A stretch of DNA of 39,724 bases from a virus. The stretch lies in the IMG/VR virus record IMGVR_UViG_3300020202_000051. One strand, 5' to 3'. The translations under genes and the position numbers were made by a program. A model generated the notes under the pieces. That model did not search any database and was not told where the DNA came from. It saw only the letters and a list, made by a program, of their open reading frames with translations. Within the stretch, counting starts at the first letter, position 1. Each line of letters begins with the position of its first letter. Positions 4,890-39,724 of the stretch are shown here, in pieces.

Positions 4890-5810
4890 TTAGGAAGTTG
4901 TGGCCGAGAGCCGCCCATGAAGCCTGTTATTGGAGCTACCGAAAGCCCCCATCCACAGGATCTTGGCGGTCTTGACGTCCTGATTCACCGGCTTCTGGAA
5001 CGGCTCAAACTTCATGTCACAATCCTTGTGAACGAAAAGGTGGAGATAGTTCTCGTTCAGGAAGAACATATTTGAGGCCGGGCAGTAGCTATCCGGAATA
5101 ACCGGCGCGCCGTTGAACATCAGGTTCTCAAAGCCGCCCTTGGCGGTCTCAGAGTCCTGAAACCGCTGCTGAGGCTGCAAAAGCGCGTAGTACGAGTTGT
5201 ACAGCGTCCGGGTCGTTGCGATCACAGTCGGCTTATCGTTATTGACAGTAGCCGCAGTGAACCGGGTCTGCATGGCAGCGATCGAAAGAACGGTTGTCGT
5301 GCTATCGACCCCGCCCTGCCACCAGCTGTAGGAGCTTTGAGAGATGCCGCCTACGGTCTGGTCGGTGGCCACGATGTCCCGGAGGCCCACGATCGACTTC
5401 GTGTCGCTCCCGTCCGAGTAGATCCCGGTTCCAAGCTTATCGAGCATGGTCTTCTCGGCGATCTTGACCTTGTTTTTCACCAAGCTCAGGACCTGAGAGT
5501 CGCCCGAGTTCTTTCGCTCGTCAGCGCCAGTGATCGAGATATTGGCGTAAAGCTGCTTCCAAGTGTACTCGGCAGCGGTCATGACGTCGTTGTCGGTCGT
5601 GAGCAGCGTGTCGGCGCCCGAATACCAACCGGAGCTCGTCACAGTCGCGTAGTTGAGCGGCACGACGATTCTCTCGCCGCCGTCCAGCTTCTCATACGAC
5701 TTCTTCTTGAGCCGCATCAGGAGCGCATTGGAGTCAAAGATATTGTCGTAAAGCTTCGGAATGAACTTCTTCTGAGTGATCGCACTCAGCTGGTCATACG
5801 TCAGTGGCAT
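4890..5810 (-). CDS. Major capsid protein (HK97-fold type inferred)
   Basis: 306 aa in portal-scaffold-capsid order. N-terminal MPLTYDQLSAITQKKFIPKLYDNIFDSNALLMRLKK and C-terminal FNGAPVIPDSYCP...FLNENYLHLF resemble phage coat proteins, from memory. Confidence 0.75.
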   Translation of the reverse strand: MPLTYDQLSAITQKKFIPKLYDNIFDSNALLMRLKKKSYEKLDGGERIVVPLNYATVTSSGWYSGADTLLTTDNDVMTAAEYTWKQLYANISITGADERKNSGDSQVLSLVKNKVKIAEKTMLDKLGTGIYSDGSDTKSIVGLRDIVATDQTVGGISQSSYSWWQGGVDSTTTVLSIAAMQTRFTAATVNNDKPTVIATTRTLYNSYYALLQPQQRFQDSETAKGGFENLMFNGAPVIPDSYCPASNMFFLNENYLHLFVHKDCDMKFEPFQKPVNQDVKTAKILWMGAFGSSNNRLHGRLSATTS

Positions 5811-10735: not shown

Positions 10736-10900
10736 CAGTTGTTGTTTATAAGTAGAAAAACAAAGGTTTTTTCGCACCCAATTCGCGATTCACCCTGACA
10801 ACTCATCAAAGTGGTAAAGCCGCGGTTCGACCGATAACCGTCCGATCGATTAACCTTAAATAGTGGCGTCACGCTGGAATTAGGCAAAAGGAGTTGTACG

Positions 10901-11026
10901 ATGACCGAATGGATCCTCGGAATTTTTGGGAGCATCATCAGCCGAATACTGTCCGAAATCGTACTGAATCGCCTCAAGGCGTTCTGGCGCTGGGTCACCC
11001 AATCACCATTCACCCCGTCACGCTAA
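10901..11026 (+). CDS. Candidate 41-aa amphipathic peptide, antisense to the flanking operon
   Basis: AAAGGAG sits 7 nt upstream of ATG 10901. Translation is [41 protein letters not shown]. Third-position GC is about 68% by hand count, against about 55% for the overlapping 92-aa minus-strand ORF. Confidence 0.35.
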
Positions 11027-12578
11027 TCATATCACTGGACGCCTCACCTAAGCCCGTGAGCCCCTGCTCAGCGAATTCCACCGCCTGCTGGGCGACGGTA
11101 GCACGGTCGGCGTCGCTTTCTGGCATCCCGTTGATCTTCACAATGGCATTCATGATCCAGGCAGCGAAGTACGCGCGCTTACTGATCACCGTCATGAGCG
11201 TTGCAGGATCATCGCCAAGTTCTTGAAGGACTCTTAGGGCTAGAAGCTTCGCGTTTGACGAATAGACCGCCTGAGTTTCAGCGTCCGAGGGGAGGCCAAA
11301 AACGGCGACGACCGCGTTCATCGCTTCCAGTGTAAAGTAGGTGCGCTTCGTCATGACCGGGAAGGGGAGCGCTCCTCCTCCGCCTCCTCCTCCCGCGGGT
11401 CCGGGGGGGCCTTGGGGTCCGACTGGACCTATTGGACCGGCTGGTCCCTGTGGTCCCACTGGGCCAGGAACGCCTGCTGGGCCAGATGGACCCGGATCGC
11501 CTCGATCTCCTTTGGGTCCAACGGGGCCGGGCAAACCGTCGGCGCCGGGGGGGCCAGCAGGTCCTGGAGGGCCTTCTGGGCCTGGCGGGCCGTCCGCTCC
11601 TTGTGGACCCGGTGGTCCAGGAACAGGATCACCCGCGCCAACGCCCGGAGGACCCTGAATGCCCTGCGGCCCCATCGGACCCACATCACCCTTGTCTCCT
11701 TTCGGCCCTTGAGGGCCAGGAGGCCCCGGAATCCCTTCACCCGTGCCGCCGCCCGAGCCTGCTGGGCCGGGAGGGCCTTGCGGACCTACCGGGCCTTGAG
11801 GTCCCGCGACGCCTTGGATCCCTTGCGGGCCTTGCGCGCCCGGGTCGCCTTTGTCGCCTTTTGGACCTGCTGGTCCAACTGGACCTTGATTGCCTGCTGG
11901 ACCTTCTGGGCCTCGTTCGCCTGGAGGACCCATTTCCCCCTTCGGGCCTTGGGGACCGACGGGACCTTGAGCGCCCTGCAGACCAGGCGGTCCCTGGTCG
12001 CCCTTGGGACCTTGGGGCCCTTGCGGCCCCGGGGATCCAGGCTGTCCAGATAGTCCAGTAGGGCCGATATCACCTTTTGGACCGGGGGGCCCGGGCAGGC
12101 CCTGGGGTCCTTGCAGCCCATCTGCACCTGGTAAACCTTTCGGTCCAGGTAGGCCTTGAGGACCAGGTACTCCAGGCTGACCGGAAGGACCTTGTGCTCC
12201 TGGAGGACCTGGAGGTCCAGCGGGACCAGGAGCGCCTTGCGGCCCCTGAACACCTGCCGGACCAGCGGGTCCAACCGGGCCTGCGGGCCCAACGGGTCCG
12301 ATGGGCCCTTGCGGTCCCGGAGGACCCTGCGGCCCCGGCACTCCTCCCGTCCCACCGCCTGTCGTTTCGTCATCCGGCATCTCCAAAAGCTCCTTGAGCC
12401 ATTTTCTCCCAAACGTCTGCCGCATGAGAATCTCACGCCCCCAGGGATGGGATTCGAGCGGAAGCTCCACCTTGGGTCCAAAGAACTCAGCCGCGTTCGA
12501 GAGACGTTCAATGATCTCGATCGCGCGTTTCCATTTCTTCGACTGCCCGGGCGGCGTGGGTTTATCGGGTTTCGGCAT
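11010..12578 (-). CDS. Collagen-like protein (about 340 aa of G-X-Y triplets) with a duplicated C-terminal domain
   Basis: N-terminal 76 aa, then [17 protein letters not shown]... through roughly 11324..12350 with short interruptions. The C-terminus has two similar units, [25 protein letters not shown] and [25 protein letters not shown]. Confidence 0.9.
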
Positions 12579-14580: not shown

Positions 14581-14810
14581 TTCCCCTCCCCGGCCAGGGC
14601 GCGAATCTCCTCGGCCACTCGCCGTGCTGGGTAGTCGCATCCTGGCTCATTGCCCACCTTCTCGCATGCCGCTACCGCGTCCTGGGTCGCCTCAAGGTAG
14701 CCGGCGAGGTAGGCGTGATAACGCATCTCACTGGGTGTATCGAGCTGGTCGCGAGGATTGTCGACACAGGCCGACGCATAGGCTTCCGCCTTCTTCTCAA
14801 CTTCACTCAC
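14577..14810 (-). CDS. Hypothetical early protein (77 aa)
   Basis: GTG at 14810 behind CAGGAGGAGCC. Confidence 0.6.
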   Translation of the reverse strand: MSEVEKKAEAYASACVDNPRDQLDTPSEMRYHAYLAGYLEATQDAVAACEKVGNEPGCDYPARRVAEEIRALAGEGK

Positions 14811-15285
14811 GGGGCGGCTCCTCCTGACTTCGGCCGTTGGCCTCGTCCGTCCTGGCGGACGCTAGCTTGGCAAGTGCCTGGCTCGCCACTCTGCCAATAC
14901 CAAAGTTGCGTTCAAAGTCCGCACTTTCGGGGCTAATGGGCCGGTGTGGTGGGATGTAGCTAGCGTAGAACTCTAGAGCCTCCTTAGCCAAGGCGAGTTG
15001 AGCGTCTCGCCGACGGATAGCCAAGCTCGCGGCGCCATAATGGGCGTTCGAACTAGCCACCTCATTGGCCAGAACCACACCAGCCTCCTCCAGCGCCCGG
15101 GCTCGCGCTTCGGCAGCTGAAGCCTCCAGAGCATCGGTGATGCGGTTCACGAGCGCAAAGTAAACCGACTCCGAAATTCTAATCTGCGCAAAGGTGCCCT
15201 CACCTCGAAGGATGCCTTCGAACCACTTCTCGACTATCTCCCTGGCCCGCTCCTCGTGACTACCCTTCGCCATACTGCTCACCAT
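14803..15285 (-). CDS. Hypothetical early protein (about 160 aa)
   Basis: ATG at 15285 behind GGAGGCTTTCT is preferred over 15306. Confidence 0.6.
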   Translation of the reverse strand: MVSSMAKGSHEERAREIVEKWFEGILRGEGTFAQIRISESVYFALVNRITDALEASAAEARARALEEAGVVLANEVASSNAHYGAASLAIRRRDAQLALAKEALEFYASYIPPHRPISPESADFERNFGIGRVASQALAKLASARTDEANGRSQEEPPRE

Positions 15286-15457
15286 AGAAAGCCTCCATCT
15301 GCTCATCGCCTTCGATAGCAGCGTGCAGGTGCCTCAAGGCATACTGCACGTATGCTTCGCCTATGGTTCCAGGCTGGCACCAAAGTCCGGCGTCGTTCGC
15401 TTGGCGTTCGACTACAGCCAAGATGCGCTTGAGCCGCTCCGAGTAGGGGGCGGTCAT
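15260..15457 (-). CDS. Hypothetical early protein (65 aa)
   Basis: ATG at 15457 forms an ATGA overlap with the stop of gene 15454..15669. Confidence 0.55.
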   Translation of the reverse strand: MTAPYSERLKRILAVVERQANDAGLWCQPGTIGEAYVQYALRHLHAAIEGDEQMEAFYGEQYGEG

Positions 15458-15669
15458 GGCCCCTCCCACATCCCGCGCTCCATAGCGGTCATTCCGCATT
15501 TAGAGCACGAGACCGAACCCCAGCGAGCACGCCTGCGGCTCTCTGGGTCACTTGCCAGCCCCTGCCAGTAAGTGCCGTCTGGGTTTTCGCCGCCACACAA
15601 CTCGGGACCGTCCGAATCGCAGATATGGTCTTTGGGTGGGCCACAATGAAATATCTGTATGTCGCTCAT
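15454..15669 (-). CDS. Hypothetical Cys-rich early protein (71 aa)
   Basis: ATGA overlap with the upstream gene at 15666-15669. Confidence 0.6.
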   Translation of the reverse strand: MSDIQIFHCGPPKDHICDSDGPELCGGENPDGTYWQGLASDPESRRRARWGSVSCSKCGMTAMERGMWEGP

Positions 15670-16220
15670 CCCTTCTCCCCCTCTCCCCGCAGCTGGGCGA
15701 GGGCCTGGCGGGCGCCGTCCAAATATGCCTTATTGGACGCTACTTCTAAGTGCGTCGGGACACATCTTTCCTCGCAACAGTTACCTAGCGTCTCCGCAGC
15801 AGACATTAATCCCTCTTTGGCTTCCTCCAGCGCGTCCGTGGCCAGGGCGAGCTTCTTTTCACCCTCTGCCCACTTGATAGCCCACTCAGATTCTTGCAGC
15901 CACTTGTCCAGTCTAGATGGATGCTCAGCCGCAGCTTTCCATTCGGCTACCTCAGCGCGAAGTACCGCTATCTTTGCCTCTTGTTCCTCCACCAGCGCCA
16001 GCAGACGCGGGATGTCTGAACGCGCATGACTTATAAACTCCAAGAACTCAGTCGAAGGCTCTACACCTGAATCATCTTGAACCAAATGCTCGCCGGTCTC
16101 TGAGTTCCAGAGCTCCCAGTGGTCTAGGTCATCGCCGTGCGCATACGTCCACGGGGGAGGAGGCACCGCATCCACCCGCGCCTGCACCTGGGCGAGCCAG
16201 GCCTTCTCGTCTTCCCTCAT
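15666..16220 (-). CDS. Hypothetical early protein with a coiled coil (184 aa)
   Basis: ATGA overlap with the NeuB-like stop at 16217-16220. Confidence 0.65.
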   Translation of the reverse strand: MREDEKAWLAQVQARVDAVPPPPWTYAHGDDLDHWELWNSETGEHLVQDDSGVEPSTEFLEFISHARSDIPRLLALVEEQEAKIAVLRAEVAEWKAAAEHPSRLDKWLQESEWAIKWAEGEKKLALATDALEEAKEGLMSAAETLGNCCEERCVPTHLEVASNKAYLDGARQALAQLRGEGEKG

Positions 16221-17260
16221 CTCTCACCATCCCAATCCCAGCGGCCAATCGCATGGCCCGCCTGAATGTTCACCCTGACCCGGTGCCCCTCGATGCTCGG
16301 AGCCGCATGAGGCGGAAGCCAGTCGAGTGACGGCACGTGCGAGCGGTAGATGCCAAACGTCTCGCCTTCTTTCAGAACGTCGCCTTTCTTAAGATCGCGT
16401 AGGGCGATCAAGCGCCTGTGATGCAGGAGCCGCATCGAATTGTCGTCGGCGTTCTGTTCAGGCAGATTCCCACGGATCGCTTGCACCATTTCCTTAAATT
16501 CAGACGGGATCAGACTATGCGGCCGGTCAGGCGTCATCACGTCGGGAATTACCGTAAAGTGCTTCTCAATCACACAAGCACCGGTTCCCCATGTCATGGC
16601 CAGGATCTCGGTTGAATGATCCGAAAGCCCTGCGGGCACCCGGAACTCATGAGCGAAACGCGAAAGTTTCCACAACTCTGTCCGCCGTGCTGGATAGGCT
16701 CCTACGCAGTACATGAGAACGACAGGCGTCTCGCCCAGGCGCCTAAGCGCAAGCCGGATCTCCGTCTCGCTATGCCCTGCGGTTGAAAGGAGCACGGGCT
16801 TCCCGTAGCCTTTGAGCTTATCCAAGATTCGGATATGCGCCATCTCGGAGGATGCGACCTTATGGATCCTGACGTAAGGGTTAACCACGTCGTAAAGCTC
16901 GGGCGAGAAGGCCGAGCACAGGAATTCAATCGCATGCTCATCGCAGTGGGCTGAAAGGAGCGGGATCCACTCAGGCGGCATCTCACCCGGCAAGCGCTTT
17001 CTTAAGCTCCCGCGCGCATAAAGTTCCTCAAGGGGGATATCCGAGTCAGGCGCTGTCGCATCCGTGAGACTGAGAACGCCATAAAGCGCCTGCTCATTGA
17101 AGAGCTGAAACTTGACCGCATCTGCTCCCGCCTCTTTCGCTGCCTCAATCGATCTCAGGCAATCGTGAATGTCACGCCAGTTGCTGCCGACCTCGGCAAT
17201 TATGAAGGGCTTACATCCGTCGCCGATCTTAAGATCAGGACCGACTTCAATCGTGCTCAA
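16217..17260 (-). CDS. NeuB/PseI/SpsE-family nonulosonic (sialic-like) acid synthase homologue
   Basis: N-terminal KPFIIAEVGSNWRDIHDCLRSIEAAKEAGADAVKFQLF (NeuB TIM-barrel signature). C-terminal SAF-like LIALRDLKKGDVLKEGETFGIYRS. TTG start at 17260 behind GAGGAGGAGGAG, with a TTGA overlap. Confidence 0.75.
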   Translation of the reverse strand: MSTIEVGPDLKIGDGCKPFIIAEVGSNWRDIHDCLRSIEAAKEAGADAVKFQLFNEQALYGVLSLTDATAPDSDIPLEELYARGSLRKRLPGEMPPEWIPLLSAHCDEHAIEFLCSAFSPELYDVVNPYVRIHKVASSEMAHIRILDKLKGYGKPVLLSTAGHSETEIRLALRRLGETPVVLMYCVGAYPARRTELWKLSRFAHEFRVPAGLSDHSTEILAMTWGTGACVIEKHFTVIPDVMTPDRPHSLIPSEFKEMVQAIRGNLPEQNADDNSMRLLHHRRLIALRDLKKGDVLKEGETFGIYRSHVPSLDWLPPHAAPSIEGHRVRVNIQAGHAIGRWDWDGER

Positions 17261-17649
17261 CTCTCCTCCTCCTCTTTCCGCTCGGCTGCCTCATAGCCGA
17301 GTTCCACCCGCGTCCCGTCCCGCTTCTCGATGATCGTGGGCCGGGGGAACTGGTGGGAAACCTCATCGACCACTTTCCCGATCGAGCGATTGAGAAGCAT
17401 TTCAAGCCGGCCGGGGTCGGCTTCGTTCACACCCTTGTGGATGATCGATGCGATGTAGAGATCAATCGCAGGCGTCGCTGGATCTGAGACGATCTCCATC
17501 ACCTGGGCTCTGGTCATGTGCAGGAACTTCGAGACGAGCTTCCGAAGAGAGTCTTTCGTCAGGCTATCGATCGCCTTCAGCTCCGGAGGAAGCTTCGGCC
17601 GCCCCTTGGGATTCCCGGACTGCCCTGGCTTGAAACGTCCTTTCACCAT
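17257..17649 (-). CDS. DUF5681-like protein (FKPGQSGNPKGRPK motif); possible DNA-binding/small-terminase-like
   Basis: The N-terminal GNPxGRPK motif is recognised from memory. Function is not established. Confidence 0.5.
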   Translation of the reverse strand: MVKGRFKPGQSGNPKGRPKLPPELKAIDSLTKDSLRKLVSKFLHMTRAQVMEIVSDPATPAIDLYIASIIHKGVNEADPGRLEMLLNRSIGKVVDEVSHQFPRPTIIEKRDGTRVELGYEAAERKEEEES

Positions 17650-21892: not shown

Positions 21893-23017
21893 TCACCGCT
21901 TGGCCCCCCCGGTGATCGACACCACGACGTCCTGCAGGCCAGCTCCAAAGCCGATCCGTTTGCCCTTCTCAACCAAGTGCGAAATGTCTTTCTTCGTGTA
22001 CCGCTCAGTCACAAGCACCGTCGAATGACCCAGCATGTCCTTGATCTCAGATTTGGAGTACCCGGCGCGCTCGGCATTCGTCGCGAACGTCCGCCTGAGG
22101 TCATGGATCGTTACCCGGGTGACCTTGGCTTCGGTGATCGCCCGCCTGTGGACATCCTTGAACGTGTCGTAAGGGATGAATCCCCCTTCAGGCTTTGACG
22201 CGATGTAGTCCTGAGGCCGGGTCCATTTCGTCTCACTCCGGAATGCATCAATCGCATCCCTGAGCCTTGGGAAGAGGGGCACCAGGGTCTCCCCTCCTTC
22301 GCCCTTCCCCTTTTGGCGTTCCACGACCTCACCCAAGGCTCGGTCCTCAAGGCGCCTGACCTGGACGACGGACGCCTCCCAGTCGATATCCTGGAACTGA
22401 AGCGCATTGGCCGAGCAGATCCGGGCGCCTGTCCAAAGCAGGAGCTGGCCCAGCATCCAGTAGTGAATCCCCTCTGCCCGGAGGGCCTCAAGATACCTCC
22501 CCTGCTCCTCCCAGCTCAGAACCTGCTTGGACTTGATCGGCTCGGGCTTGAGCGGAATTCGGCTGATCGGATTGACCAAGACCTTGCCTTCCATGAAGGC
22601 GTCCTGAAAGAGCTTGTGCATGAGCGCCCGGTACCGATTCCGGGTCGCGACCGTTTTCTTCATCTCGTATTGAAGCTCATCCAATGCCTCGAGAACCTCA
22701 GCAGTCGAGATGCTCTGCATGGGCCTCACCCCAAACCTGGGGAGCCAGAAGTTCTTGAGCCTCGAATCGTCATTCTTGACCGTCCCAAGCGGCATCTCGG
22801 CATAGCGCTTCCTGATCCACCGCTTGGCAAAGTCAATGAGCAGGATCTCATCCAGGGGAGCGGCAAGTCCGGCCTTCACCCTCTGGCGGTCAATCTGAAC
22901 CTTGCCTTCAAACTCAATTGCGTCTTGTTTCCGGGTAAATGAGCGGGTTTTGACCTTCCCCATGTCCCGCCATTGTACCATCCAGGGGGCTTTCCGCCCT
23001 TCCCTGTACTGAGGCAT
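21893..23017 (-). CDS. int: Tyrosine integrase
   Basis: TGARICS (Arg), HDLRRTFAT (His-x-x-Arg) and LGHSTVLVTERYTK (His...Tyr). Adjacent to the attP-like tRNA fragment. Confidence 0.9.
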   Translation of the reverse strand: MPQYREGRKAPWMVQWRDMGKVKTRSFTRKQDAIEFEGKVQIDRQRVKAGLAAPLDEILLIDFAKRWIRKRYAEMPLGTVKNDDSRLKNFWLPRFGVRPMQSISTAEVLEALDELQYEMKKTVATRNRYRALMHKLFQDAFMEGKVLVNPISRIPLKPEPIKSKQVLSWEEQGRYLEALRAEGIHYWMLGQLLLWTGARICSANALQFQDIDWEASVVQVRRLEDRALGEVVERQKGKGEGGETLVPLFPRLRDAIDAFRSETKWTRPQDYIASKPEGGFIPYDTFKDVHRRAITEAKVTRVTIHDLRRTFATNAERAGYSKSEIKDMLGHSTVLVTERYTKKDISHLVEKGKRIGFGAGLQDVVVSITGGAKR

Positions 23018-25647: not shown

Positions 25648-25866
25648 TCAGCTTGCCTGCCGTTGCTCAGCGATTCGGTTTTCGATTCGCTCCATCGTTT
25701 CGCGCAGGACAACTATGCTGGGGTACCTCATGCGCACCGTCTTACCGTTCAGGAATCGCCATAGCGTGCTAGGGGCAATCCCCAGTTCATTCGCTAACTC
25801 GGATCCAGTTACCCGCCAGCGGATCATCCAGTCTTGGATCCACTTTTGGGATGCACGGCTCTTCAT
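25648..25866 (-). CDS. Cro-like HTH regulator, first gene of the leftward early operon
   Basis: TGSELANELGIAPSTLWRFLNGK. ATG 25866 lies 6 nt downstream of a TATAAC -10. Confidence 0.65.
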   Translation of the reverse strand: MKSRASQKWIQDWMIRWRVTGSELANELGIAPSTLWRFLNGKTVRMRYPSIVVLRETMERIENRIAEQRQAS

Positions 25867-25917
25867 GATCAGGTTATAGATCCAGTTTGCAAAAACTGCA
25901 ACTAAAAATTGCAAAAA
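25867..25917. promoter_or_regulatory. Divergent switch region with a palindromic operator
   Basis: TTGCA-AAAAC-TGCAA at 25887-25901, and a second TTGCA at 25909. The minus-strand promoter reads TTGCAG (25901..25896), 17 nt, TATAAC (25878..25873). Confidence 0.6.
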
Positions 25918-26427
25918 ATGTCTAAGGATACTCTTTCGATTTTAAACCGAAATTTTGGCCGGATGATCCAGAAGCTGAACTGGGATCAGAAAAGGGCCGC
26001 GGCAGCAATGGGCCTAAAGCATTATACTTTGAGCCGCTATCTCGCCGGCAAAACTGACCCAGGAATCAAGGGCCTGGAGAAGATCGCCAAGGGCTTCGGG
26101 ATCACCGTCTCGGAACTGCTCGACCCAGAAAAGCCACCCTCCGCCCGATTCGCCCCGATTAGCGCAATGGACGCGCTCGTAGCGATTGAAGAGCACGTCC
26201 GTGCGACGTCGGATCATCCTGTCCCATCAACTGAAACGATTGATGAAATTCTCGCCAGCTTGAAGGAACTTCATGCGCGGCTTGATCACGCGCCGGAGCT
26301 GCCCCCGCGGCTTGACCTGGCGACGATTCCGTTGCCTCTTCTCTGGGCCCTTGGCGCCATTGACCGCCAGGGGCTGGTCACCATCACCAAGATGCTCGAA
26401 GCGCTTTTGAAGCGTCGCATGTTGTAG
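25918..26427 (+). CDS. CI-like repressor candidate (XRE HTH plus C-terminal domain)
   Basis: ATG at 25918. QKRAAAAMGLKHYTLSRYLAGKTDPGIKGLEKIAKGFGITVSELL. No S24 peptidase motif seen. Confidence 0.7.
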   Translation: MSKDTLSILNRNFGRMIQKLNWDQKRAAAAMGLKHYTLSRYLAGKTDPGIKGLEKIAKGFGITVSELLDPEKPPSARFAPISAMDALVAIEEHVRATSDHPVPSTETIDEILASLKELHARLDHAPELPPRLDLATIPLPLLWALGAIDRQGLVTITKMLEALLKRRML

Positions 26428-27031: not shown

Positions 27032-27095
27032 ACCCTTTCGATTGTGCTTTTTTTGACACATTCATTTGATCGGAATTCCGACCGATACTCAAAGC

Positions 27096-27371
27096 ATGAA
27101 AACTGCCATTCTCATGGGAATAGCCCTATTCCTCGCATCAGGCCCTGGGTGCTCGGGGATGAAAAAGCGCCAATCGATCACTGCGCCCCAGGTTGGCTGC
27201 CCTCCCCAAGAAATCCAAATTGTTGATCAGCGACGCGCGTTCCTCTCCTCAACTCACTCCTGGACAGCCATTTGCCGAGGCAAGGTCTACCACTGCGGCG
27301 GAGAAGGTGGCTTTGCTACCTGTAAGCAGGATCCAGCTAACGCTGCTCTTTCTCAGCCAAATACGCCTTAA
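27096..27371 (+). CDS. Secreted or lipoprotein-like protein (possible prophage-expressed surface/exclusion factor)
   Basis: ATG at 27096. MKTAILMGIALFLASGPGCSG is a signal peptide with Cys19. Five further Cys residues. Confidence 0.55.
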   Translation: MKTAILMGIALFLASGPGCSGMKKRQSITAPQVGCPPQEIQIVDQRRAFLSSTHSWTAICRGKVYHCGGEGGFATCKQDPANAALSQPNTP

Positions 27372-27570
27372 CGTCATCGTTCACGACGGGCTTCCGCTTC
27401 ACGGGCTCGGGCTTGAAGGTAAACCGCCCCGATCTCACCAGCTGCTGAGGCGCAGGCTTATCATAGGGGATCGGGCTCGGCCGCTGGCCGAAGAGGAGGA
27501 GCCCCAAGGCCAGGAGCGCGATCGAAAGGAGCACTCCGATCACGATCCCGAGCCAGAGCACGCGCTTCAC
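27337..27570 (-). CDS. Single-pass membrane protein (77 aa), last gene of the sugar cassette
   Basis: N-terminal VLWLGIVIGVLLSIALLALGLLLF. ATGA-type overlap with the GNAT gene. Confidence 0.55.
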   Translation of the reverse strand: MKRVLWLGIVIGVLLSIALLALGLLLFGQRPSPIPYDKPAPQQLVRSGRFTFKPEPVKRKPVVNDDVKAYLAEKEQR

Positions 27571-28181
27571 CCTACGGCTCTAGAGTAAGCAGGCTGCCCC
27601 GCCTGATTGAACCGCTGCCAGTCTTCCATCCGAAGCGGGATCTTGTTCGGGTAAGCAGCGTGCGAGAACCACTCATCTCTGAGCAGGCTGTAAAGCTGCG
27701 CATCGAGATACTCGCCTTCGCGGTAGTAAAATGCGCGCCTTGAGCCCTCGAGCTTAAACCCCAGGTCCTGAAAGATCTTCTGGGCGGCATTGCCCTCAAA
27801 CGATTCACCCCAGATGCAGTTGAGCCCGAGCGTATAGAAGCCGTGGCTAACGAGCGTCTGAAGGGCTGCCCTCCCGTGCCCATGCTTACGCTCATTGGGT
27901 GCAATGTAGAGGGAGAATTCAGCCCTGTGGTTCCAGGGGTCGATCGACGTCAGTCCACAGACGCCGACAGGCTTTCCTTCGGCCTTGATGATGTACATCT
28001 TGATCGACGGATCCTGCGCCTGGCGCTCATACCATTTCTCCTGGGCGTAATCCGAAATGAGATCGTTCTGCCTGCAGGTGCGCCAGGTCGCGTAATCGTT
28101 CCGCCATTCCTTGATCAGATGCATGAAATGGCGATCGAGCGGCCCGAGACTGACGTTCTTCCCGTAGCCGTAGGCGATCAC
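27567..28181 (-). CDS. GNAT N-acetyltransferase (PseH/RimL-like)
   Basis: LIKEWRNDYATWR..., GVCGLTSIDPWNHRAEFSLYIAPNERKHGHGRAALQ and NAAQKIFQDLGFKLEG fit the GNAT fold and PseH-like N-terminus. Confidence 0.7.
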   Translation of the reverse strand: MIAYGYGKNVSLGPLDRHFMHLIKEWRNDYATWRTCRQNDLISDYAQEKWYERQAQDPSIKMYIIKAEGKPVGVCGLTSIDPWNHRAEFSLYIAPNERKHGHGRAALQTLVSHGFYTLGLNCIWGESFEGNAAQKIFQDLGFKLEGSRRAFYYREGEYLDAQLYSLLRDEWFSHAAYPNKIPLRMEDWQRFNQAGQPAYSRAVG

Positions 28182-28372
28182 GCGGCTTTCTCCCAGAGCT
28201 TCTGGATGAGATCCACCAGGTGGAAGTTCTCGGAAACGCCGACGTTGTCCTTCAGAAATGCGCCGAAGGCTTCGCCGAACTTCCCCTGCTCATGCTTCAG
28301 TTCCATCTCCATCTTTCTCAGCTTCTCTCGCCATTCGACGAGTGCCTGGATCTTTGTATCAATCTCACTCAT
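28178..28372 (-). CDS. Hypothetical helical protein (64 aa)
   Basis: ORF coupled to both neighbours by 4-nt overlaps. Confidence 0.5.
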   Translation of the reverse strand: MSEIDTKIQALVEWREKLRKMEMELKHEQGKFGEAFGAFLKDNVGVSENFHLVDLIQKLWEKAA

Positions 28373-29589
28373 GCCTTTCCCTCCCTCACTTTGGCGGCAA
28401 ATGGACTCTGAGGGGCTTTGCCCTCAAGTTGTACAGACCCTGTCCTGATCCGGGTCAAAATGTCTGAGCAGGTATTCAGAACCTGATCCATGACGGATAT
28501 ATGGTGGAAGTTGAAGAACCAGGAGGGGCCAAAGAGAATCCCTGCCCGGCAAGCCTCCTGCCAGAACTTGGCCTTCACCTCGGGATCGCCTTTGAAGTAG
28601 CCCCGCGTCGGATACCCTTCGATCTGGATCATCCCGGGCCAGATGGAATTGAAGGCCTTTAGGAATTGCCCGCCCTTCTCCCAGAGGTGCTCAAGTCGAT
28701 ATTTCGTCTGAAGGAGCTGCATCGTTTTTGTGGCAGCGGCCAGAGACAGCGTCTCGCCCGCAAAGGTCGAAGAGACGAAATACTCCTGTCCGCTCATGAG
28801 ATCGCGCTTGCCTGCGACTGCTGACAAGGGCATCCCATTGGCGATCGCCTTCCCCAGGCAGATGAGATCCGGCTGAATGCCGTAATGCTGAGCTACGGTG
28901 AAACCTGGATACCTGAAGCCCGTAATGATCTCATCGAAGATGAGAACGACTCCATTACGCGTGCAGAATTCCCGCAGCTGCCTGAGCCAGGCAATTCGGT
29001 CGTCGCTTGTATCGAGCATGACGGGCTCGATGATGACGGCAGCTGTATCGGGCTCGATTTCGGCCGCCTCAAGCTTCCGGATCCACTGATGATGCATCAC
29101 TCCCAATGCGGGAGGGGTCAGCGAGACGAACTCGTCAGACCACCCGTGATATCCTTCGGTGTAGACGCGGTTCCGCTTGGTATAGGCCCTGGCGATCCTG
29201 AGTGCTGCCTGGCAGGCTTCGGAGCCTGTCTTTAGGAACTTCACTTGCTCGACCCAGGGGACGAGTTCTTTGACCTTCTCAGCGGTGAAAAGCTCAGTAT
29301 AGGAGCTGAGCGAAAGCGTCGCTCCCTGGTGCGCCCGGTGGATGATGGCTTCAGTGACTTCCGGGTGCCCGTAGCCCAGGATGTTTGAGCCCAGGCCGCA
29401 GATAAAGTCTAAGAACCTGTTTCCTTCAACATCCCATACATAAGCGCCATGACCGGTAGCTAGATGAGTAGGGTAGATTCCCTCGATCAAACAGGAGGGC
29501 CTCTTACTGTTTGTCAGCGAACCCTGAGCAATACACTCCATAGCTCGCCGCTGGTAGTCCCATTTTGGTGGTTTCCACTTATGCGGCAT
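28369..29589 (-). CDS. Class-III PLP aminotransferase (glutamate-1-semialdehyde aminomutase-like)
   Basis: HGAYVWDVEGNRFLDFICGLGSNILGYGHPEV and the PLP-lysine context DLICLGKAIANGMPLSAV. Start is ATG 29589 (GGAAGGG SD) or 29604. Confidence 0.75.
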   Translation of the reverse strand: MPHKWKPPKWDYQRRAMECIAQGSLTNSKRPSCLIEGIYPTHLATGHGAYVWDVEGNRFLDFICGLGSNILGYGHPEVTEAIIHRAHQGATLSLSSYTELFTAEKVKELVPWVEQVKFLKTGSEACQAALRIARAYTKRNRVYTEGYHGWSDEFVSLTPPALGVMHHQWIRKLEAAEIEPDTAAVIIEPVMLDTSDDRIAWLRQLREFCTRNGVVLIFDEIITGFRYPGFTVAQHYGIQPDLICLGKAIANGMPLSAVAGKRDLMSGQEYFVSSTFAGETLSLAAATKTMQLLQTKYRLEHLWEKGGQFLKAFNSIWPGMIQIEGYPTRGYFKGDPEVKAKFWQEACRAGILFGPSWFFNFHHISVMDQVLNTCSDILTRIRTGSVQLEGKAPQSPFAAKVREGKA

Positions 29590-30043
29590 GGGCAGCCCTT
29601 CCATGTTCTGCCAAATGATGGATGCGACAAAGCCACGTAATGTCTAGTGGCTTGCTATAATCGGTATGGTGAGCCTGCGAATTTGGATCACCGCAAATCT
29701 CACATGCTTGTCGGATCAGCTTTCCCGTCATCAGTGCTTTTCTAACCCGGGCATAAACGCGGTTCCGCATTTTATAGTTTTCTGTTTTCCAATACCGCCT
29801 TATTGCTAACCATCTGTCTTGGGATTTTTTGTATGCATCCAGGACCAGCTTACCCCGATCTGTGCTCTGATATTTGCGCGTGGCCAAGATTGCGGCCTGT
29901 CGACCCTTTTCCGTCTTCCGATACTCACGCGTGGCGGTTAAAAGGCATGTTTTGCATTTGCCGCGCACACCATCGCGACTTGTAGAATCCTTGTAGAATT
30001 CGGCTAGCGGTTTTTCAGTCCCACAGCCCTTACAGCGCTTCAT
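29579..30043 (-). mobile_element. HNH homing-type endonuclease gene inserted in the sugar cassette
   Basis: CKGCG...CKTC at the N-terminus and CEICGDPNSQAHHTDYSKPLDITWLCRIHHLAEH at the C-terminus. Visibly AT-richer than its flanks. Confidence 0.7.
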
Positions 30044-30055
30044 CTCATCCCTCCC

Positions 30056-30781
30056 TTAGAACCGGTGAACCAGCTGTTTGCCAAACTTCTCCTGGGCAGC
30101 CTGGCGCTTCTTCTTGATCTTCTCGAACTCTTCTCTCACGCGCTCTAAGTCCTCAGGCGTATCGACCGAGAACTTGAAATGGGCCTGGTCAAAGGCGTCA
30201 TTGAAGAACGTCCCGCACCGGGCCCACTCGGGAGGCTCCCTGCGGAGAAAGGTCGTCACGTGCTCACGGTCAGGGGCCTCCGTTGCGTGATCAAAAGCGT
30301 AGCGAAGGAGCTTCGAAGAGATGACTTCGCAGTCCATCCCATCAGCCCAGGTGCGGCAGGTCTCTTCGACGTTCGAGTAGTAGTCGCAGGCATCCTTGAT
30401 CGCGTTATTGATGCACTTCTGGATGACAGTCTCTGAAATGAGCGGGCAGTCACCAGTGACCCGCACGATGTACTGGGCATTCACCTGATCGGACATGGCC
30501 TGGTAGCGCGCGAGCACATCCTCCTCAGGCCCTTCGATGACGGACGCGAGATGCCTGAACTTGTCTTTGATCTCATCACCGAAAGGAACGAGGAGCGCGA
30601 TACTCACATGCACGCCCGTTTTTCCGGTGTGACGATTCACAAAGCGCGCAGCCCTCTTACAGGAGCCGATCACATGCGAGAGAAGGGGCTGGCCATCGAG
30701 AAGCGCAAACGCCTTTCTGGGAAAGCGCCTGCTATTCGTCCGGGCCTGAATGCCGATGCAGACGTTCGTGATCTCAACCAT
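30056..30781 (-). CDS. SpsF-type (CTP_transf_3) cytidylyltransferase, putative CMP-nonulosonate synthetase
   Basis: IGIQARTNSRRFPRKAFALLDGQPLLSHVI and EGPEEDVLARYQAMSDQVNAQYIVRVTGDCPLI match the SpsF/acylneuraminate cytidylyltransferase signature. Confidence 0.75.
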   Translation of the reverse strand: MVEITNVCIGIQARTNSRRFPRKAFALLDGQPLLSHVIGSCKRAARFVNRHTGKTGVHVSIALLVPFGDEIKDKFRHLASVIEGPEEDVLARYQAMSDQVNAQYIVRVTGDCPLISETVIQKCINNAIKDACDYYSNVEETCRTWADGMDCEVISSKLLRYAFDHATEAPDREHVTTFLRREPPEWARCGTFFNDAFDQAHFKFSVDTPEDLERVREEFEKIKKKRQAAQEKFGKQLVHRF

Positions 30782-30980
30782 GGCGGGGAGACCTCAGGAA
30801 AACGTCCGTAGGCGCAATCCTACGCACCTCGATAATGGCAACGCCTGAGGTCAGGTCGTGAAGCAGCGCTCTTGCGTCGTAGGATTCCTGACGAACGGGC
30901 GGCTTGTGGCGGGCTTTTAGGTAGAGGAAGGCATTGCAGGCCAGCGAGATGCCGAAAAGCGGCAGGAGAAATAGTTCCAC
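30774..30980 (-). CDS. Small membrane protein (68 aa)
   Basis: GTG at 30980. N-terminal ELFLLPLFGISLACNAFLYL. 8-nt overlap with the cytidylyltransferase start. Confidence 0.45.
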   Translation of the reverse strand: MELFLLPLFGISLACNAFLYLKARHKPPVRQESYDARALLHDLTSGVAIIEVRRIAPTDVFLRSPRHG

Positions 30981-31071: not shown

Positions 31072-31521
31072 TTACTGATCCAGCAGCAGATAGGGCTTGA
31101 TCGCCTCGTCCAGATCCAGGTGGTACCAGGTGATGATCCTGGCCATGTCCATATTGGGGCAGGTCTTCCCCAGCTTGATCGCGCTCGGGAATTGGTAATG
31201 CCCATACAACTCCCAGGGCTTGATCGAGTAGGTCGTCACCATGGAATCGATGAAATAGCGCAGGGCGTGAAACTGCTGGGCGGTAAACCGGTCACGGCCG
31301 ATCAGGCAGACGTGGGTAGAACCCTCATTGGCTCCCTCAACGCCTGCGCCCTTCTCCCTGAGCCCCCGGCCCTTATCCCGCTGCCCATCGGGCTGTAAAA
31401 CGACGTGATAACCGATATCGGCCCATCCCCGGTCGAGATGCCACCTCCGGATGGTTGCCACGTCCACGGGCTTCCCGTTATCGGTGTCGCTGCAGTGCAG
31501 GACGATCCTGACGGGCATCAT
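31072..31521 (-). CDS. N-acetylmuramoyl-L-alanine amidase (T7 lysozyme/PGRP type) endolysin
   Basis: IVLHCSDT..., GWADIGYHVV..., HYQF...KTCPNMD correspond to the Zn ligands and fold motifs of Amidase_2. Confidence 0.85.
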   Translation of the reverse strand: MMPVRIVLHCSDTDNGKPVDVATIRRWHLDRGWADIGYHVVLQPDGQRDKGRGLREKGAGVEGANEGSTHVCLIGRDRFTAQQFHALRYFIDSMVTTYSIKPWELYGHYQFPSAIKLGKTCPNMDMARIITWYHLDLDEAIKPYLLLDQ

Positions 31522-32872: not shown

Positions 32873-34237
32873 TTAAATGTCATAGAACTTGTCGATTGCG
32901 ATCCAGTTGAGGGCAGCAGTCGCTATCAGCGTTTCATTGGCGCCGGACTGGTTCGTCAGGCGAACATCGAGTGTGTCCCCTACCGCGCACTTCACAACGG
33001 CTGAGCCTCCGAGCCCCACGTTCTCGGTATTCGTCCCCATCTTCCCCTGGAAGCAGAGCCGCGAGACGTTTGATCCGTTCTGATAGAGATCTAAGAAGAA
33101 GATTCCAGCCGCCGAGCTATCAGACACCTGGCAGTGAGCTGCCACATGGTAATAACCGGCTGCAGGCGCGGTAAAGACACCGGTGGATGAGTTAAATGCC
33201 CCGTGAGTGTCATAGATCTCAGTTCCGAAGACGACAATCGTCGTATCGGTATTGAGCATCGACTGACCTGCGGCCGTCCTAGCCCGGACGCCAACGTGCT
33301 TAGGTTCGAAGTGTCCCACGGCGATCTCGGTCGGAACCGCTGCCCAGGTGCCGGCCGTCGTCTGATTACTGGTGAGTCTCGCCAGAAGCCTGACGGGCAC
33401 GTCGGTGCGCGCAGTCGTCGAGTACATGACCGCATTGGAATCCGCGCCTCCTGCGCCTCCTTCTGCGGTCGTCGACTGCCGGGTGCCGTCGTCAAAGAGG
33501 GTATGGGAGACGGCGAGCTCCACCGTCCCAGAATTATCGAGCGCGTAGACATAGATGGGATGCGCAGTCCCGTCCGTATGCCCCAAGGTCGAGCCCGAGC
33601 TGACCGTCATGGATAGAGCAGCAGTAACCGTCCGGTTAGTGACCGTTCCTGTCGCAGCGGTTGAGCTTCGGAATGGGATCTCAACGGGGTTGGTAGCCGA
33701 GGCGTCGTTTCCGTCAGCGCCTTTGAGAGCGATCGTCAGCGCATTGGAGGCAACTGAGCAGGCAATCCCGACGTTGTAACCGCCCCAGGCGCTACGCCTG
33801 TGCGGCTGCCAGGACATGGTGCCTGAGCCATCGGTCTGGAGGAAATCCCTGGCATCGCCGTCGGTGATCGGAAGAGTGAGTGTGATGTTCCCAGTAACGG
33901 CGCCGCCGATGAGCCGCGTTCCGAACGCGCCCCCTGAGCTTCCGAAGTAGATGGACCGGAGGCCTAAGGTCGAAGAGCCAATGTCATAGGAGTTCGTCGT
34001 CTTGATCGCGATGGTGGATGCAAGACTCGCCGTGATCGTGAGATCATCACCTGAGGCATTGCCGAGGTTTACGTTGCCGTTCAGAGTCGCAGTCCCTGCA
34101 CAGGTGAGGGCCGAGATCGACAGGTCCTTAGTGCCGTCACTGACGCCGTTGATGATATCCGTGAAGTTCTGGTTAACTTGACTCGCATCCGCTGTGGTCG
34201 AGTTCGAAAACGTGTAGGTAACTGATGGAGCGGGCAC
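32873..34237 (-). CDS. Tail fibre with a C-terminal C1q/TNF-like globular domain
   Basis: GTG at 34237 behind GGGAG. N-terminal TYTFSNSTTADASQVNQNFTDI is fibre-like. C-terminal GVFTAPAAGYYHVAAHCQV...LYQNGSNVSR...GGSAVVKCAVGDTLDVRL follows the C1q-domain pattern. Confidence 0.75.
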   Translation of the reverse strand: MPAPSVTYTFSNSTTADASQVNQNFTDIINGVSDGTKDLSISALTCAGTATLNGNVNLGNASGDDLTITASLASTIAIKTTNSYDIGSSTLGLRSIYFGSSGGAFGTRLIGGAVTGNITLTLPITDGDARDFLQTDGSGTMSWQPHRRSAWGGYNVGIACSVASNALTIALKGADGNDASATNPVEIPFRSSTAATGTVTNRTVTAALSMTVSSGSTLGHTDGTAHPIYVYALDNSGTVELAVSHTLFDDGTRQSTTAEGGAGGADSNAVMYSTTARTDVPVRLLARLTSNQTTAGTWAAVPTEIAVGHFEPKHVGVRARTAAGQSMLNTDTTIVVFGTEIYDTHGAFNSSTGVFTAPAAGYYHVAAHCQVSDSSAAGIFFLDLYQNGSNVSRLCFQGKMGTNTENVGLGGSAVVKCAVGDTLDVRLTNQSGANETLIATAALNWIAIDKFYDI

Positions 34238-38366: not shown

Positions 38367-39724
38367 TATCTATTCCTCCCTTTCGGGTTATAGGAAAACT
38401 TTCCCCAGTGGACCTTAAACATCTGGCCCACCCTGTTCTGATTCGAGAACTTGAACTGAATCCTCTGACCCCGGGCGCCCGCCAAGGGCTGCCTGATCTC
38501 CTGCTGATCCACCCCGCCGCCCCAGTTATCGCGCCCCCAGACCATGGAACCCCACAGGGAGCCTCCCGGGTCGAGATCAATCTGCGCGGTATCGCCGTCT
38601 CCTGAGTCTGAGTCCACCCGCCAGCCTAGGGTCATGAAGTAGTCGCCGGCCTTTTCGACCAGGAAGCGGGCATCCCGGAAGTCCTTGTGGGCTTCTGCGT
38701 CTTCCGACCCGCCGTCGAATTCTTTCGTCCAGAAATAGGAATTGATCGCCGTTCCATCGTCGGAATAGACGCCTGAGTTGAGCTTGTAGACGAATCCTGT
38801 GGCAGTCGATGACCCGTAGTAGAGATTGCCGGCATAAATGACGAACTGAGCAGCGTTCAGCCCCGTCCAAGGGACCCAAGCTTCTCTCTGGCGTTTGGCA
38901 ATGTTGGAAATCGAGAAGTCCATCACATAGACACGGTTATTCGTCGTCTGGCCTGAGCCGTAGGTGACGGCGATGTAGGCCTTATTCTTAAACACCATGC
39001 CCGAGAAGTTCCCGACGTAACTTTCCTGCATGTTGAAGACGTCAGGCTCGATGCGTTCGCTCTTGAGATCGCTTCCTGCGGTCGAAACGGTGAGAAGGGT
39101 CGCCGAGGGATCGACCGTATCGCCGTTGAGCGCTGCGAAACCCGCCAGCTTGTCATTCTGCATGGCTGGAAAGAGCGTCTTGTTATTGTAATCGAGGATA
39201 CAAAAGGGCGATTTCGTCCCGTAGCTCGACTTTACCCTGACCCGGCGCCAATCCGAATCCGAAGTAGATGGCATGTAATTGATCCAGGCGGATTTCTCGC
39301 AGAAGATCACAAGCGAGTTGTCATAGACGCCGAAGCCCTTGACCAGATCCGCGCTCGCATCGCCTGCGATAAAGAAGTTGGTTGAAGCGACCGTGTAAGG
39401 CTCGTCAAGACCCGTGTACCAGACGTAGCTCGGGTTCGCGAGATCGTTCATGAAAAGCCGCCGCTGGTGATAGATGATCACCGAGTACTTGGGCGGAACG
39501 CCGTTATCGGTCGGAGCTGTCGCACCTAGGGCTGAGTCGGCGTTATTGTCGTCATAGGTCGTCGTCGTGTTATCCGCGATCGTCGTCACGCGCTTAAAAG
39601 TGCTACCCCCCGCCTCCGTGCGGTAAAGGCGTCTCTCACTGATCCCGAAGCTTGCCGCAAAGGTCGGGATGGAGGACACCCGGAGGGTAGCCCCGGCCGC
39701 AGTGAATGTCGTGCTGACTGGGCC
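38366..39724 (-). CDS. 3' part of the wrap-around 632-aa tail/nozzle-like virion protein (unique part 38366..39597)
   Basis: The ORF is open to the window end. The track's start at 39679 is an internal GVal codon (GTG). An FN3-like stretch GDYRYKVTAVNSQSVESDVGP lies in the 1..667 part. Confidence 0.8.
   Translation of the reverse strand, partial: GPVSTTFTAAGATLRVSSIPTFAASFGISERRLYRTEAGGSTFKRVTTIADNTTTTYDDNNADSALGATAPTDNGVPPKYSVIIYHQRRLFMNDLANPSYVWYTGLDEPYTVASTNFFIAGDASADLVKGFGVYDNSLVIFCEKSAWINYMPSTSDSDWRRVRVKSSYGTKSPFCILDYNNKTLFPAMQNDKLAGFAALNGDTVDPSATLLTVSTAGSDLKSERIEPDVFNMQESYVGNFSGMVFKNKAYIAVTYGSGQTTNNRVYVMDFSISNIAKRQREAWVPWTGLNAAQFVIYAGNLYYGSSTATGFVYKLNSGVYSDDGTAINSYFWTKEFDGGSEDAEAHKDFRDARFLVEKAGDYFMTLGWRVDSDSGDGDTAQIDLDPGGSLWGSMVWGRDNWGGGVDQQEIRQPLAGARGQRIQFKFSNQNRVGQMFKVHWGKFSYNPKGRNR
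39598..39724. repeat. Terminal direct repeat, copy 2
   Basis: Identical to 1..127. Confidence 0.95.

Follow-up and report, generated by a model that had tools for sequence, protein, structure and literature searches.

The IMG/VR virus record IMGVR_UViG_3300020202_000051, a stretch of 39,724 nucleotides that was analysed in full and is here called the window, carries a cassette of seven genes behind its lysis genes that had been predicted to supply the late steps of a sugar-nucleotide pathway. In the current study, we propose that a cytidine monophosphate (CMP)-activated pseudaminic-type sugar is made late in infection and put on the surface of the phage's own capsid, a reading to which we give about an even chance. 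The original prediction did not see a Maf-type transferase gene in the head module, and it is this gene that gives the cassette its probable purpose. We are slightly more reserved about the fuller claim that a widespread family of temperate, podophage-like viruses makes the CMP-pseudaminic-type sugar largely with its own enzymes, perhaps as a new derivative, and that a minimal Maf-type enzyme O-glycosylates the decoration protein or major capsid protein. The proposal builds on what could be demonstrated for the genes themselves, namely the enzyme families, the synteny, the core status of the genes within the family, and the Maf-like fold of the transferase.

Relatives of the window were collected from IMG/VR. 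A single-protein pattern scan returned 2 loci only, and alignment-based scans were hence run with three anchors: the cassette aminotransferase (108 relatives), the Maf-like protein (161 relatives), and the major capsid protein (388 relatives). For each anchor 80 loci were kept (L numbers below are our labels for loci), and gene presence and order across them were surveyed by tblastn. The two ends of the window overlap exactly over 127 bp (1-127 = 39598-39724), indicating that the assembly is circular and closed at about 39.6 kb; the gene inventory is therefore complete, and absences from it are real. The window is a complete temperate phage genome with an integrase and a cI-like repressor.

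A Maf-type transferase in the head module

Pfam family PF01973 covers both the archaeal MptE kinase and the Maf glycosyltransferases of flagellin. The window encodes one such protein (Table 1), and a profile built from 30 Maf-like members of the phage family retrieved a Magnetospirillum Maf structure as its top match (5mu5, E 9e-4). A Foldseek search with the AlphaFold2 (AF2) model of the protein, which has a predicted local distance difference test score (pLDDT) of 92, matched the same Maf structure with an E-value of 8e-12 and a probability of 1.0, followed by the MptE kinase (2e-5) and eukaryotic GT29 sialyltransferases (approximately 5e-4). An identity as an MptE-like folate kinase was rejected, given that Maf is by far the better structural match and that the gene co-occurs with nonulosonic-acid genes. 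At 338 amino acids the phage protein is much shorter than the flagellin enzymes (632-666 amino acids), and 270 columns align to the 632-residue structure. Judged by the model, it would be a Maf-type catalytic core without the flanking domains, and we predict that it acts as a CMP-sugar transferase. Maf enzymes O-link several CMP-ulosonic acids to serine or threonine (bioRxiv 10.1101/2020.06.03.131540; PMC11339370). No flagellar gene was found in the genome.

The position of the transferase gene is fixed. The order capsid protein, decoration protein, Maf was found in all 64 loci with room for it, with the Maf gene no more than 2.5 kb downstream of the capsid gene, and in 64 of 64 loci the Maf-like gene had the capsid decoration gene on one side and tail genes on the other. 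The decoration (cement) gene itself separated the capsid gene from Maf in 75 of 76 loci. Foldseek matches of the decoration protein model comprised the base of the phi29 gp8.5 head fibre, the decoration proteins of Pam3, T1, HFTV1, Sf11, and TW1, and DUF2190. The protein has a conserved threonine-rich loop (residues 126-136), where confidence in the model is low. We regard the decoration protein as the most likely acceptor of the sugar, with the major capsid protein as the alternative.

Both the fold and the location of the transferase also bear on whether the sugar might be destined for the phage DNA, where it would be a hypermodification serving to evade restriction. Glycosylated DNA bases are known from phages (PMC13326640), although nothing specific to the window points in that direction: searches of the complete genome turned up no hydroxymethylase, no base-modifying kinase, and no family of DNA glycosyltransferases, the transferase is Maf/sialyltransferase-like with its gene in the head module, and the paper on glycosylated 5-hydroxycytosine mentions no nonulosonic-acid enzymes. 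We consider this use of the sugar barely credible.

A probable pathway of the pseudaminic/legionaminic type

The seven co-oriented open reading frames (ORFs) of the predicted cassette are all present on the minus strand, and profile searches bore out the cytidylyltransferase, HNH endonuclease, class-III aminotransferase, and GNAT assignments. An Sps-like pathway of the pseudaminic/legionaminic type, as originally predicted, was likewise supported, and the searches led to neither tetrapyrrole, KDO, nor teichoic-acid enzymes. The description of all seven genes as a sugar-nucleotide cassette holds for the sugar-nucleotide enzymes but not for the HNH gene, which is mobile, nor for the three small proteins, which have no link to sugar chemistry. 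We infer that the cassette constitutes the activation, amination, and N-acetylation block for a 5,7-diamino nonulosonic acid of the pseudaminic/legionaminic type.

The SpsF-type cytidylyltransferase scored 67.6 bits for CTP_transf_3 (cut-off, 22.6), and its best match in the PDB is a Leptospira cytidylyltransferase (6oew). Its closest cellular homologues occupy the PseF slot of pseudaminic acid (Pse) clusters in Azospirillum, Synechococcus, and Pseudosulfitobacter. In Azospirillum brasilense Sp7 the homologue adjoins pseI and a flagellin gene; the Synechococcus NIES-970 cluster comprises, in this order, pseB-like, degT, cytidylyltransferase, and GT28 genes and, further along, neuB; and the Pseudosulfitobacter pSMR1-1 cluster runs pseB, pseC, aldo-keto reductase, GNAT, hypothetical, cytidylyltransferase::class-III aminotransferase fusion, pseG, and pseI. 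SpsF is the cytidylyltransferase of the legionaminic-acid pathway of B. subtilis (PMC7439481), and in Vibrionaceae Pse clusters SpsF-like domains fused to an aldo-keto reductase stand in for NeuA (PMC7371886). By homology, the phage enzyme is a predicted CMP-nonulosonate synthetase that takes the PseF-equivalent step. Readings as a Kdo enzyme (KdsB) or as MobA were discarded, with scores far below cut-off and the genomic context against them.

A NeuB-family synthase had been counted as a pathway member, and such a gene is indeed present in the genome, yet it is not among the seven and lies 10 kb away from them. Its PDB matches are SpsE (1vli, 5e-27), PseI (8h2c, 2e-22), and meningococcal NeuB (2.5e-14), which places the protein nearer to B. 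subtilis SpsE and pseudaminic acid synthase than to NeuB. Typing with NCBIfam as PseI, NeuB, or LegI gave tied scores (PseI 141 bits, NeuB 140 bits), both far below the equivalog cut-offs. In a distant virus (L131) NeuB, PseB, aldo-keto reductase, aminotransferase, GNAT, two unknown genes, cytidylyltransferase, and tail fibre genes are contiguous; in two others (L108 and L142) the pathway genes are also contiguous, and the cassette adjoins the terminase. This contiguity unites in one pathway the genes that lie scattered over the window.

The early steps are missing, as originally noted for the neighbourhood of the cassette. That no dehydratase, epimerase, or UDP-sugar hydrolase is encoded holds for the whole closed genome, in which tblastn with PseB-like, Gfo-like, PseC, and PseG queries found nothing. 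PseB, the inverting UDP-GlcNAc 4,6-dehydratase, is thus absent. For PseC (DegT/DnrJ/EryC1-type), no DegT homologue was detected in the window or in any locus of the family, and the sole aminotransferase of the window is the class-III enzyme. Two PseG/GT28 queries gave nothing in the window, no ORF that was scanned had such a Pfam match, and the only match in the family was to the GNAT-like C-terminal part of a fusion query. The content of the complete genome agrees with a supply of the early steps by the host, as had been suggested. A PseB-like dehydratase is nonetheless encoded by most relatives. This dehydratase scored 240.8 bits with TIGR03589 (cut-off, 407.75), and its best PDB matches are 4j2o (a UDP-GlcNAc 4,6-dehydratase/5-epimerase), CapE, and FlaA1 (PseB, 2gn4); by its sequence it is PseB/CapE/FnlA-like.

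The class-III aminotransferase is the least conventional member of the set. Its best NCBIfam matches are HemL-type models, all far below their cut-offs. A true HemL was ruled out by scores of 186 bits against a required 527 (TIGR00713) and 206 against 486 (PRK06209), together with sugar-enzyme neighbours in every locus and no tetrapyrrole context. The GK motif with the lysine (K252) that binds pyridoxal phosphate (PLP) and a DE..TGFR motif are invariant in 36 family members, and among its relatives in the PDB are GSAM and the sugar C-6' aminotransferases GenB and NeoN. From these features, we predict that the enzyme adds an amino group to a sugar intermediate with a keto or aldehyde function. 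Its earlier placement among the late steps of Pse/Leg pathways is supported as far as the type of pathway goes; the enzyme itself is class III and not of the canonical DegT type, and elsewhere it co-occurs with DegT/PseC.

Gene linkage couples the aminotransferase to the cytidylyltransferase. The latter lies directly upstream of the former in 50 loci of the family, and the two form a single ORF of 680-710 amino acids in 19 distant viral loci (L146-L166 range, e.g., L161, 9203-11185; contigs mostly of 20-77 kb). The CTP_transf_3::class-III aminotransferase fusion of the Pseudosulfitobacter plasmid cluster (L247, 12007-14040) has the same make-up. A DegT enzyme is also encoded in 16 distant viral loci, nearly all among the 19 with the fusion, and in the Pseudosulfitobacter cluster. 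Because it coexists with DegT/PseC and is fused to a cytidylyltransferase in those clusters, the class-III enzyme may perform a tailoring step. The coupled pair has no described function. By analogy, it resembles EpaA, a prophage-encoded fusion of a CTP_transf_3 domain with an aldo-keto reductase, and this suggests that the substrate is the nonulosonic acid itself or its CMP form, possibly with oxidation followed by transamination and N-acetylation.

The GNAT protein has PseH as its best NCBIfam match (TIGR03585, E 3.4e-21, 75.9 bits; cut-off, 93.1) and aligns weakly with the PseH-like domain at the C-terminus of the PseG fusion from Pseudosulfitobacter (E 1e-6); a pairwise PDB search ranked SpeG above PseH (4ri1). 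A different assignment of both enzymes is possible, if on balance doubtful: the aminotransferase and GNAT could replace PseC and PseH on the UDP-hexose, yielding an autonomous Pse pathway. This concerns the chemistry only and is compatible with either acceptor. It would fit the finding that no locus of the window family has a DegT-type aminotransferase even though PseB-like, GNAT, NeuB, and cytidylyltransferase genes are present, and it agrees with the PseH affinities of the GNAT protein. Weighing against it, the 16 distant viral loci and Pseudosulfitobacter hold the class-III enzyme beside DegT/PseC and fused to a cytidylyltransferase, and the fusion points to a step at the nonulosonate level, as in EpaA-type fusions; moreover, no equivalent of PseG was found, and the role of the Gfo-like protein would be left unexplained.

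Two more distant occurrences of the aminotransferase were recorded. Its closest plasmid homologue (37% identity) lies in a different ulosonic-acid-like cluster of Methylomagnum ishizawai (L248, plasmid positions 9223-15668), alongside an SpsF-like "glycosyltransferase family protein," a split transketolase, a short-chain dehydrogenase/reductase, a NeuB-family protein, and a haloacid dehalogenase-type phosphatase. A 70-kb contig labelled as a giant-virus metagenome-assembled genome (L087, IMGVR GVMAG-M-3300024302-11) carries, in a stretch of about 7 kb, genes for a class-III aminotransferase (approximately 32% identity), an epimerase, NeuB, and a DegT aminotransferase.

Conservation across the phage family

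Public metagenomes yielded more than 100 homologues of the aminotransferase at 56-67% identity and more than 100 clusters of the Maf-like protein, in both cases with many on contigs of 34-41 kb. The cassette of the relatives follows the endolysin and comprises a small transmembrane protein, a PseB-like dehydratase, a Gfo/Idh/MocA protein (about 210 amino acids), the cytidylyltransferase, the aminotransferase, a small ORF, GNAT, and another small ORF. Of the 19 IMG/VR contigs with coverage of both sides, all have genes for the aminotransferase, the cytidylyltransferase, Maf, and GNAT, 18 have the PseB-like gene, and 16 the Gfo-like gene. NeuB precedes TerL in 27 of 30 loci, and wherever a TerS-like gene was detected it stands between the two; in relatives the three are contiguous. 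Identities to the window proteins amount to 52% for the aminotransferase, 53% for Maf, 43% for the cytidylyltransferase, 49% for GNAT, and 38% for NeuB, compared with 46% for the portal and 49% for TerL, and aminotransferase identity tracks that of the portal (rho 0.59, p 0.01) and of Maf (rho 0.62, p 0.004). Universality together with divergence like that of portal and TerL marks these as old core genes and not as recently acquired morons. The C1q-domain tail fibre is also kept, in 76 related loci.

The closest relative (L252, 67% aminotransferase identity) lacks the PseB-like and Gfo-like genes, as does the window, and retains a reduced set of cytidylyltransferase, aminotransferase, small ORF, GNAT, and small ORF, whereas a 65% relative (L253) has both genes. 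The loss of two genes that most relatives possess, and the HNH insert between the cytidylyltransferase and aminotransferase genes, could be taken to mean that the cassette of the window phage is a decaying, non-functional remnant. All ORFs are intact, however, NeuB and Maf included, and every family-invariant residue is kept, among them the PLP lysine. The persistence of the same reduced set in a relative at only 67% identity implies long-term purifying selection, and we judge decay to be highly improbable.

The large family to which the window belongs consists of uncultured phages of 34-41 kb. No isolated phage matched the window by DNA similarity; tblastn of GenBank phages with the aminotransferase gave matches of at most 33% identity, mostly in host-contaminated records; and a prophage and host search of 185k GTDB species genomes with the same protein yielded only generic HemL-like genes (at most 34%) with no cassette partners nearby. 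A 50.9-kb contig (L001) has phage genes on both sides of its integrase and hence no host flank. PHROGs v4 contains no family for three of the five enzymes, namely the cytidylyltransferase, NeuB, and the Maf-like protein.

Proposed mechanism and acceptor

The identity of the sugar, the order of the steps, the acceptor, and the time of expression are inferred, and the scheme that we favour is as follows. The NeuB/SpsE-like synthase would condense phosphoenolpyruvate with an amino-deoxy-hexose, the SpsF-type enzyme would turn the product into its CMP-activated form, and the class-III aminotransferase and PseH-like GNAT would supply or tailor an acetamido group. In most relatives the PseB-like dehydratase and the Gfo/Idh/MocA protein would also act, and in the window phage the host would supply the missing early steps. 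Late in infection, the phage would top up or complete the synthesis of the CMP-activated pseudaminic-type sugar, and the minimal Maf-type transferase would then O-link it to the decoration protein, the major capsid protein, or both.

Expression in the lytic cycle had been argued from the co-orientation of the cassette with structural and lysis genes. Since the integrase and early genes lie on the same strand, co-orientation alone is weak evidence. The cassette stands after the lysis genes, at the end of a single long transcription direction, and late expression gains stronger, if indirect, support from two positions kept throughout the family, that of NeuB with TerS on one side and TerL on the other and that of Maf behind the capsid genes. 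When the surroundings of the cassette were scanned for promoters and terminators, the results were no better than with shuffled sequence.

Several points weigh against a sugar coat on the virion. The complete genome lacks PseB, PseC, PseG, and a Gfo-like gene, so the pathway is incomplete on its own; a class-III aminotransferase takes the place of a DegT-type enzyme and coexists with PseC in other clusters; and the GNAT and NeuB scores fall below equivalog cut-offs. Flagellins are the substrates of every Maf enzyme characterized so far, the domains that flank the catalytic core in those enzymes are missing from the phage protein, and a gene position in the head module does not prove a virion substrate. 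No prophage of the family was found among GTDB representative genomes. In one lineage (L001-L004) an opposite-strand gene for an 82-amino-acid KH-domain protein (8080-8328, minus strand) separates the endolysin from the cassette, which makes co-transcription of cassette and lysis genes unlikely there. Finally, the sole phage-borne nonulosonic-acid enzymes that have been studied experimentally, EpaA and EpaB, modify the host capsule (PMC12053666).

This last point introduces a serious alternative, in which the sugar would go onto flagellin, pilin, lipopolysaccharide, or capsule of the host, in the lysogen or during infection, and alter the receptor, for example in superinfection exclusion or a change of serotype. 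The precedent is direct, in that prophage EpaA and EpaB turn capsule Pse into 8-epi-Pse (PMC12053666); the phage is temperate, with its integrase and cI-like repressor, the cassette abuts the immunity region, the incompleteness of the pathway implies that the host has its own production of such sugars, and the known Maf substrates are flagellins. Nevertheless, genes of the EpaAB type are sporadic and near-identical across unrelated prophages, whereas those described here are universal and have diverged like portal and terminase. The transferase gene has a fixed place with capsid genes on one side and tail genes on the other, and NeuB is likewise flanked by the terminase genes; these positions are not those of morons near the attachment site or immunity region, and the Maf-like protein is without the flanking domains of the flagellin enzymes. 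None of the marks of an EpaAB-like moron (sporadic occurrence, recent transfer, location at the prophage periphery) was observed, the genes being universal and co-diverging with core genes. We therefore regard conversion of the host surface as unlikely and continue to favour the capsid.

Comparison with known systems

A close parallel is O-glycosylation of flagellin by Maf in Campylobacter, Aeromonas, Magnetospirillum, and Clostridium, with which the phage system shares the PF01973 Maf fold, NeuB, a cytidylyltransferase, GNAT, and (in phage relatives) a PseB-like enzyme, along with a predicted O-linkage to serine or threonine from a CMP-nonulosonate. It differs in being encoded by a phage, in a transferase of half the size and without flanking domains that is linked to capsid and decoration genes instead of flagellin genes, and in having a class-III aminotransferase, no DegT/PseC, and no PseG that could be found.

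Glycosylation of virions has been met before in another form. Mycobacteriophage-encoded glycosyltransferases reportedly decorate capsid or tail proteins (Freeman et al. 2023), work to which PMC11256854 also alludes, and in this they are like the system proposed here; they are said to be ordinary GT-A/GT-B enzymes that use nucleotide sugars of the host. Virion glycosylation in mycobacteriophages is not known to involve a nonulosonic acid, sugar biosynthesis encoded by the phage, or a Maf-type enzyme.

The legionaminic-acid pathway of the B. subtilis sps system (SpsM/C/D/G/E/F; PMC7439481) contains the closest characterized or solved relatives of the SpsF-type and SpsE-like phage enzymes and likewise places a sugar on a proteinaceous shell, which is the spore crust there and, as proposed, the capsid in the phage. 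It differs in its DegT-type SpsC, in the presence of SpsG, and in both acceptor and transferase. Acinetobacter baumannii EpaA/EpaB (PMC12053666) share with the window genes their carriage by a phage, the coupling of a CTP_transf_3 domain to a tailoring enzyme for a Pse-type sugar, and the need for a host Pse pathway. Unlike the window genes, which are core to their phage family, they are sporadic morons that epimerize C8 of capsule Pse in lysogens, and the window phage adds an aminotransferase, GNAT, NeuB, and a dedicated transferase in the structural module.

In full-text searches of the literature, neither a Maf-type enzyme encoded by a phage nor the glycosylation of virions with nonulosonic acids was found to be described. 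The novelty lies in a combination of known kinds, namely virion glycosylation, Maf glycosylation, and phage-borne nonulosonic-acid enzymes, and our confidence in a virion acceptor is moderate. Were the proposal true, it would provide the first "sialylated" phage capsid and the first Maf substrate other than flagellin, extending virion glycosylation beyond mycobacteriophages, to acidic nine-carbon sugars, and to a family of transferases that until now has been known from flagella alone. Such a coat might serve in shielding, in colloidal stability, or in mimicking host surfaces or adhering to them. The minimal size of a Maf catalytic core and the job of the cytidylyltransferase/class-III aminotransferase pair in bacterial Pse clusters also become testable questions.

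Genome organization and other features

Nearly all genes lie on the minus strand, in the order early genes, packaging, head, tail, lysis genes, and cassette, which ends at the plus-strand immunity region (Table 1).

Table 1. Coordinates of the window features discussed in the text
Feature	Coordinates	Strand	Basis or remark
Truncated Maf-type (PF01973) transferase, 338 aa	3255-4271	-	PF01973, 75.6 bits (cut-off 34.6)
Capsid decoration (cement) protein, 162 aa, candidate acceptor	4383-4871	-	AF2 pLDDT 81
NeuB-family nonulosonate synthase (SpsE/PseI-like)	16217-17260	-	PF03102, E 4.7e-46, 157.6 bits
68-aa protein, hydrophobic N-terminal segment	30774-30980	-	First cassette gene; no Pfam, NCBIfam, or PHROG match
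SpsF-type cytidylyltransferase, 241 aa	30056-30781	-	PF02348 CTP_transf_3, E 1.8e-18
HNH-type endonuclease, 154 aa	29579-30043	-	No Pfam match; phrog_2340 endonuclease, E 9e-31, plus HNH/endonuclease VII PHROGs
Class-III (HemL-like) PLP aminotransferase, 411 aa	28369-29604	-	PF00202 Aminotran_3, E 2.4e-49
64-aa protein	28178-28372	-	No Pfam, NCBIfam, or PHROG match
PseH-like GNAT N-acetyltransferase, 204 aa	27567-28181	-	Acetyltransf_3, E 5e-13
77-aa transmembrane-anchored protein	27337-27570	-	Last cassette gene; no family match
Cro-like gene	25648-25914	-	First in inferred minus-strand transcription order
Integrase	21893-23017	-	Mid early region, second block of transcription order
DUF5681 TerS-like gene	17257-17649	-	After early genes
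TerL	9419-10777	-	After TerS-like gene
P22/SU10-type portal	7106-8971	-	After TerL
Major capsid protein	4890-5810	-	phrog_9953 major head protein, E 9e-64; synteny anchor
SU10-type adaptor	664-1320	-	After major capsid protein
C1q-domain tail fibre	32873-34237	-	With tail genes across window junction; PF00386, E 1.9e-8, C-terminal
Amidase_2 endolysin	31072-31521	-	PF01510, E 1.8e-9; upstream boundary of cassette
Immunity region	cI-like 25909-26427; helix-turn-helix 26828-27031; lipoprotein-like ORF 27066-27371	+	Cassette end abuts it

Within the cassette, the overlapping stop and start codons that had been described are present at five of seven junctions: 8 nt between the 68-aa protein and cytidylyltransferase genes, 26 nt between HNH and aminotransferase, and 4 nt each for aminotransferase/64-aa protein, 64-aa protein/GNAT, and GNAT/77-aa protein. 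The other two are gaps, of 12 nt between cytidylyltransferase and HNH and of 91 nt between the endolysin and the first gene. By tblastn, 20 related loci have a homologue of the 68-aa protein immediately upstream of their PseB-like gene, and the protein may be lysis-related. An ORF of 63-98 amino acids between aminotransferase and GNAT also occurs in L001, L005, L252, and L253, and relatives have a 68-74-amino-acid ORF at the position of the 77-aa protein.

The HNH endonuclease is, by its sequence and distribution, a mobile homing insert and not a pathway gene. It is absent from the closest relative, and homologues occupy other cassette positions in L090 (~11230) and L116 (~9450). In three loci (L134, L143, and L145; ~10370-10800) an HNH homologue sits inside the aminotransferase gene, with both halves in one open frame, which could be an intron, an intein, or a split gene. 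Repeated invasion by HNH genes fits a conserved homing target.

In the window phage only, NeuB and TerL are separated by a gene for a 522-amino-acid collagen triple-helix repeat protein (11010-12578, minus strand; local GC 0.65-0.68) and two orphan ORFs (14803-15306 and 15666-16220). The idea that the collagen-repeat protein is a head fibre with a base like the decoration protein was dropped, hhalign having shown no relation and the protein being absent from relatives. In the immunity region, the lipoprotein-like ORF encodes a signal peptide with a cysteine and lies 3' of two plus-strand helix-turn-helix genes; it is convergent with the last cassette gene, which it overlaps by 35 nt, and may encode an exclusion protein expressed in the lysogen.

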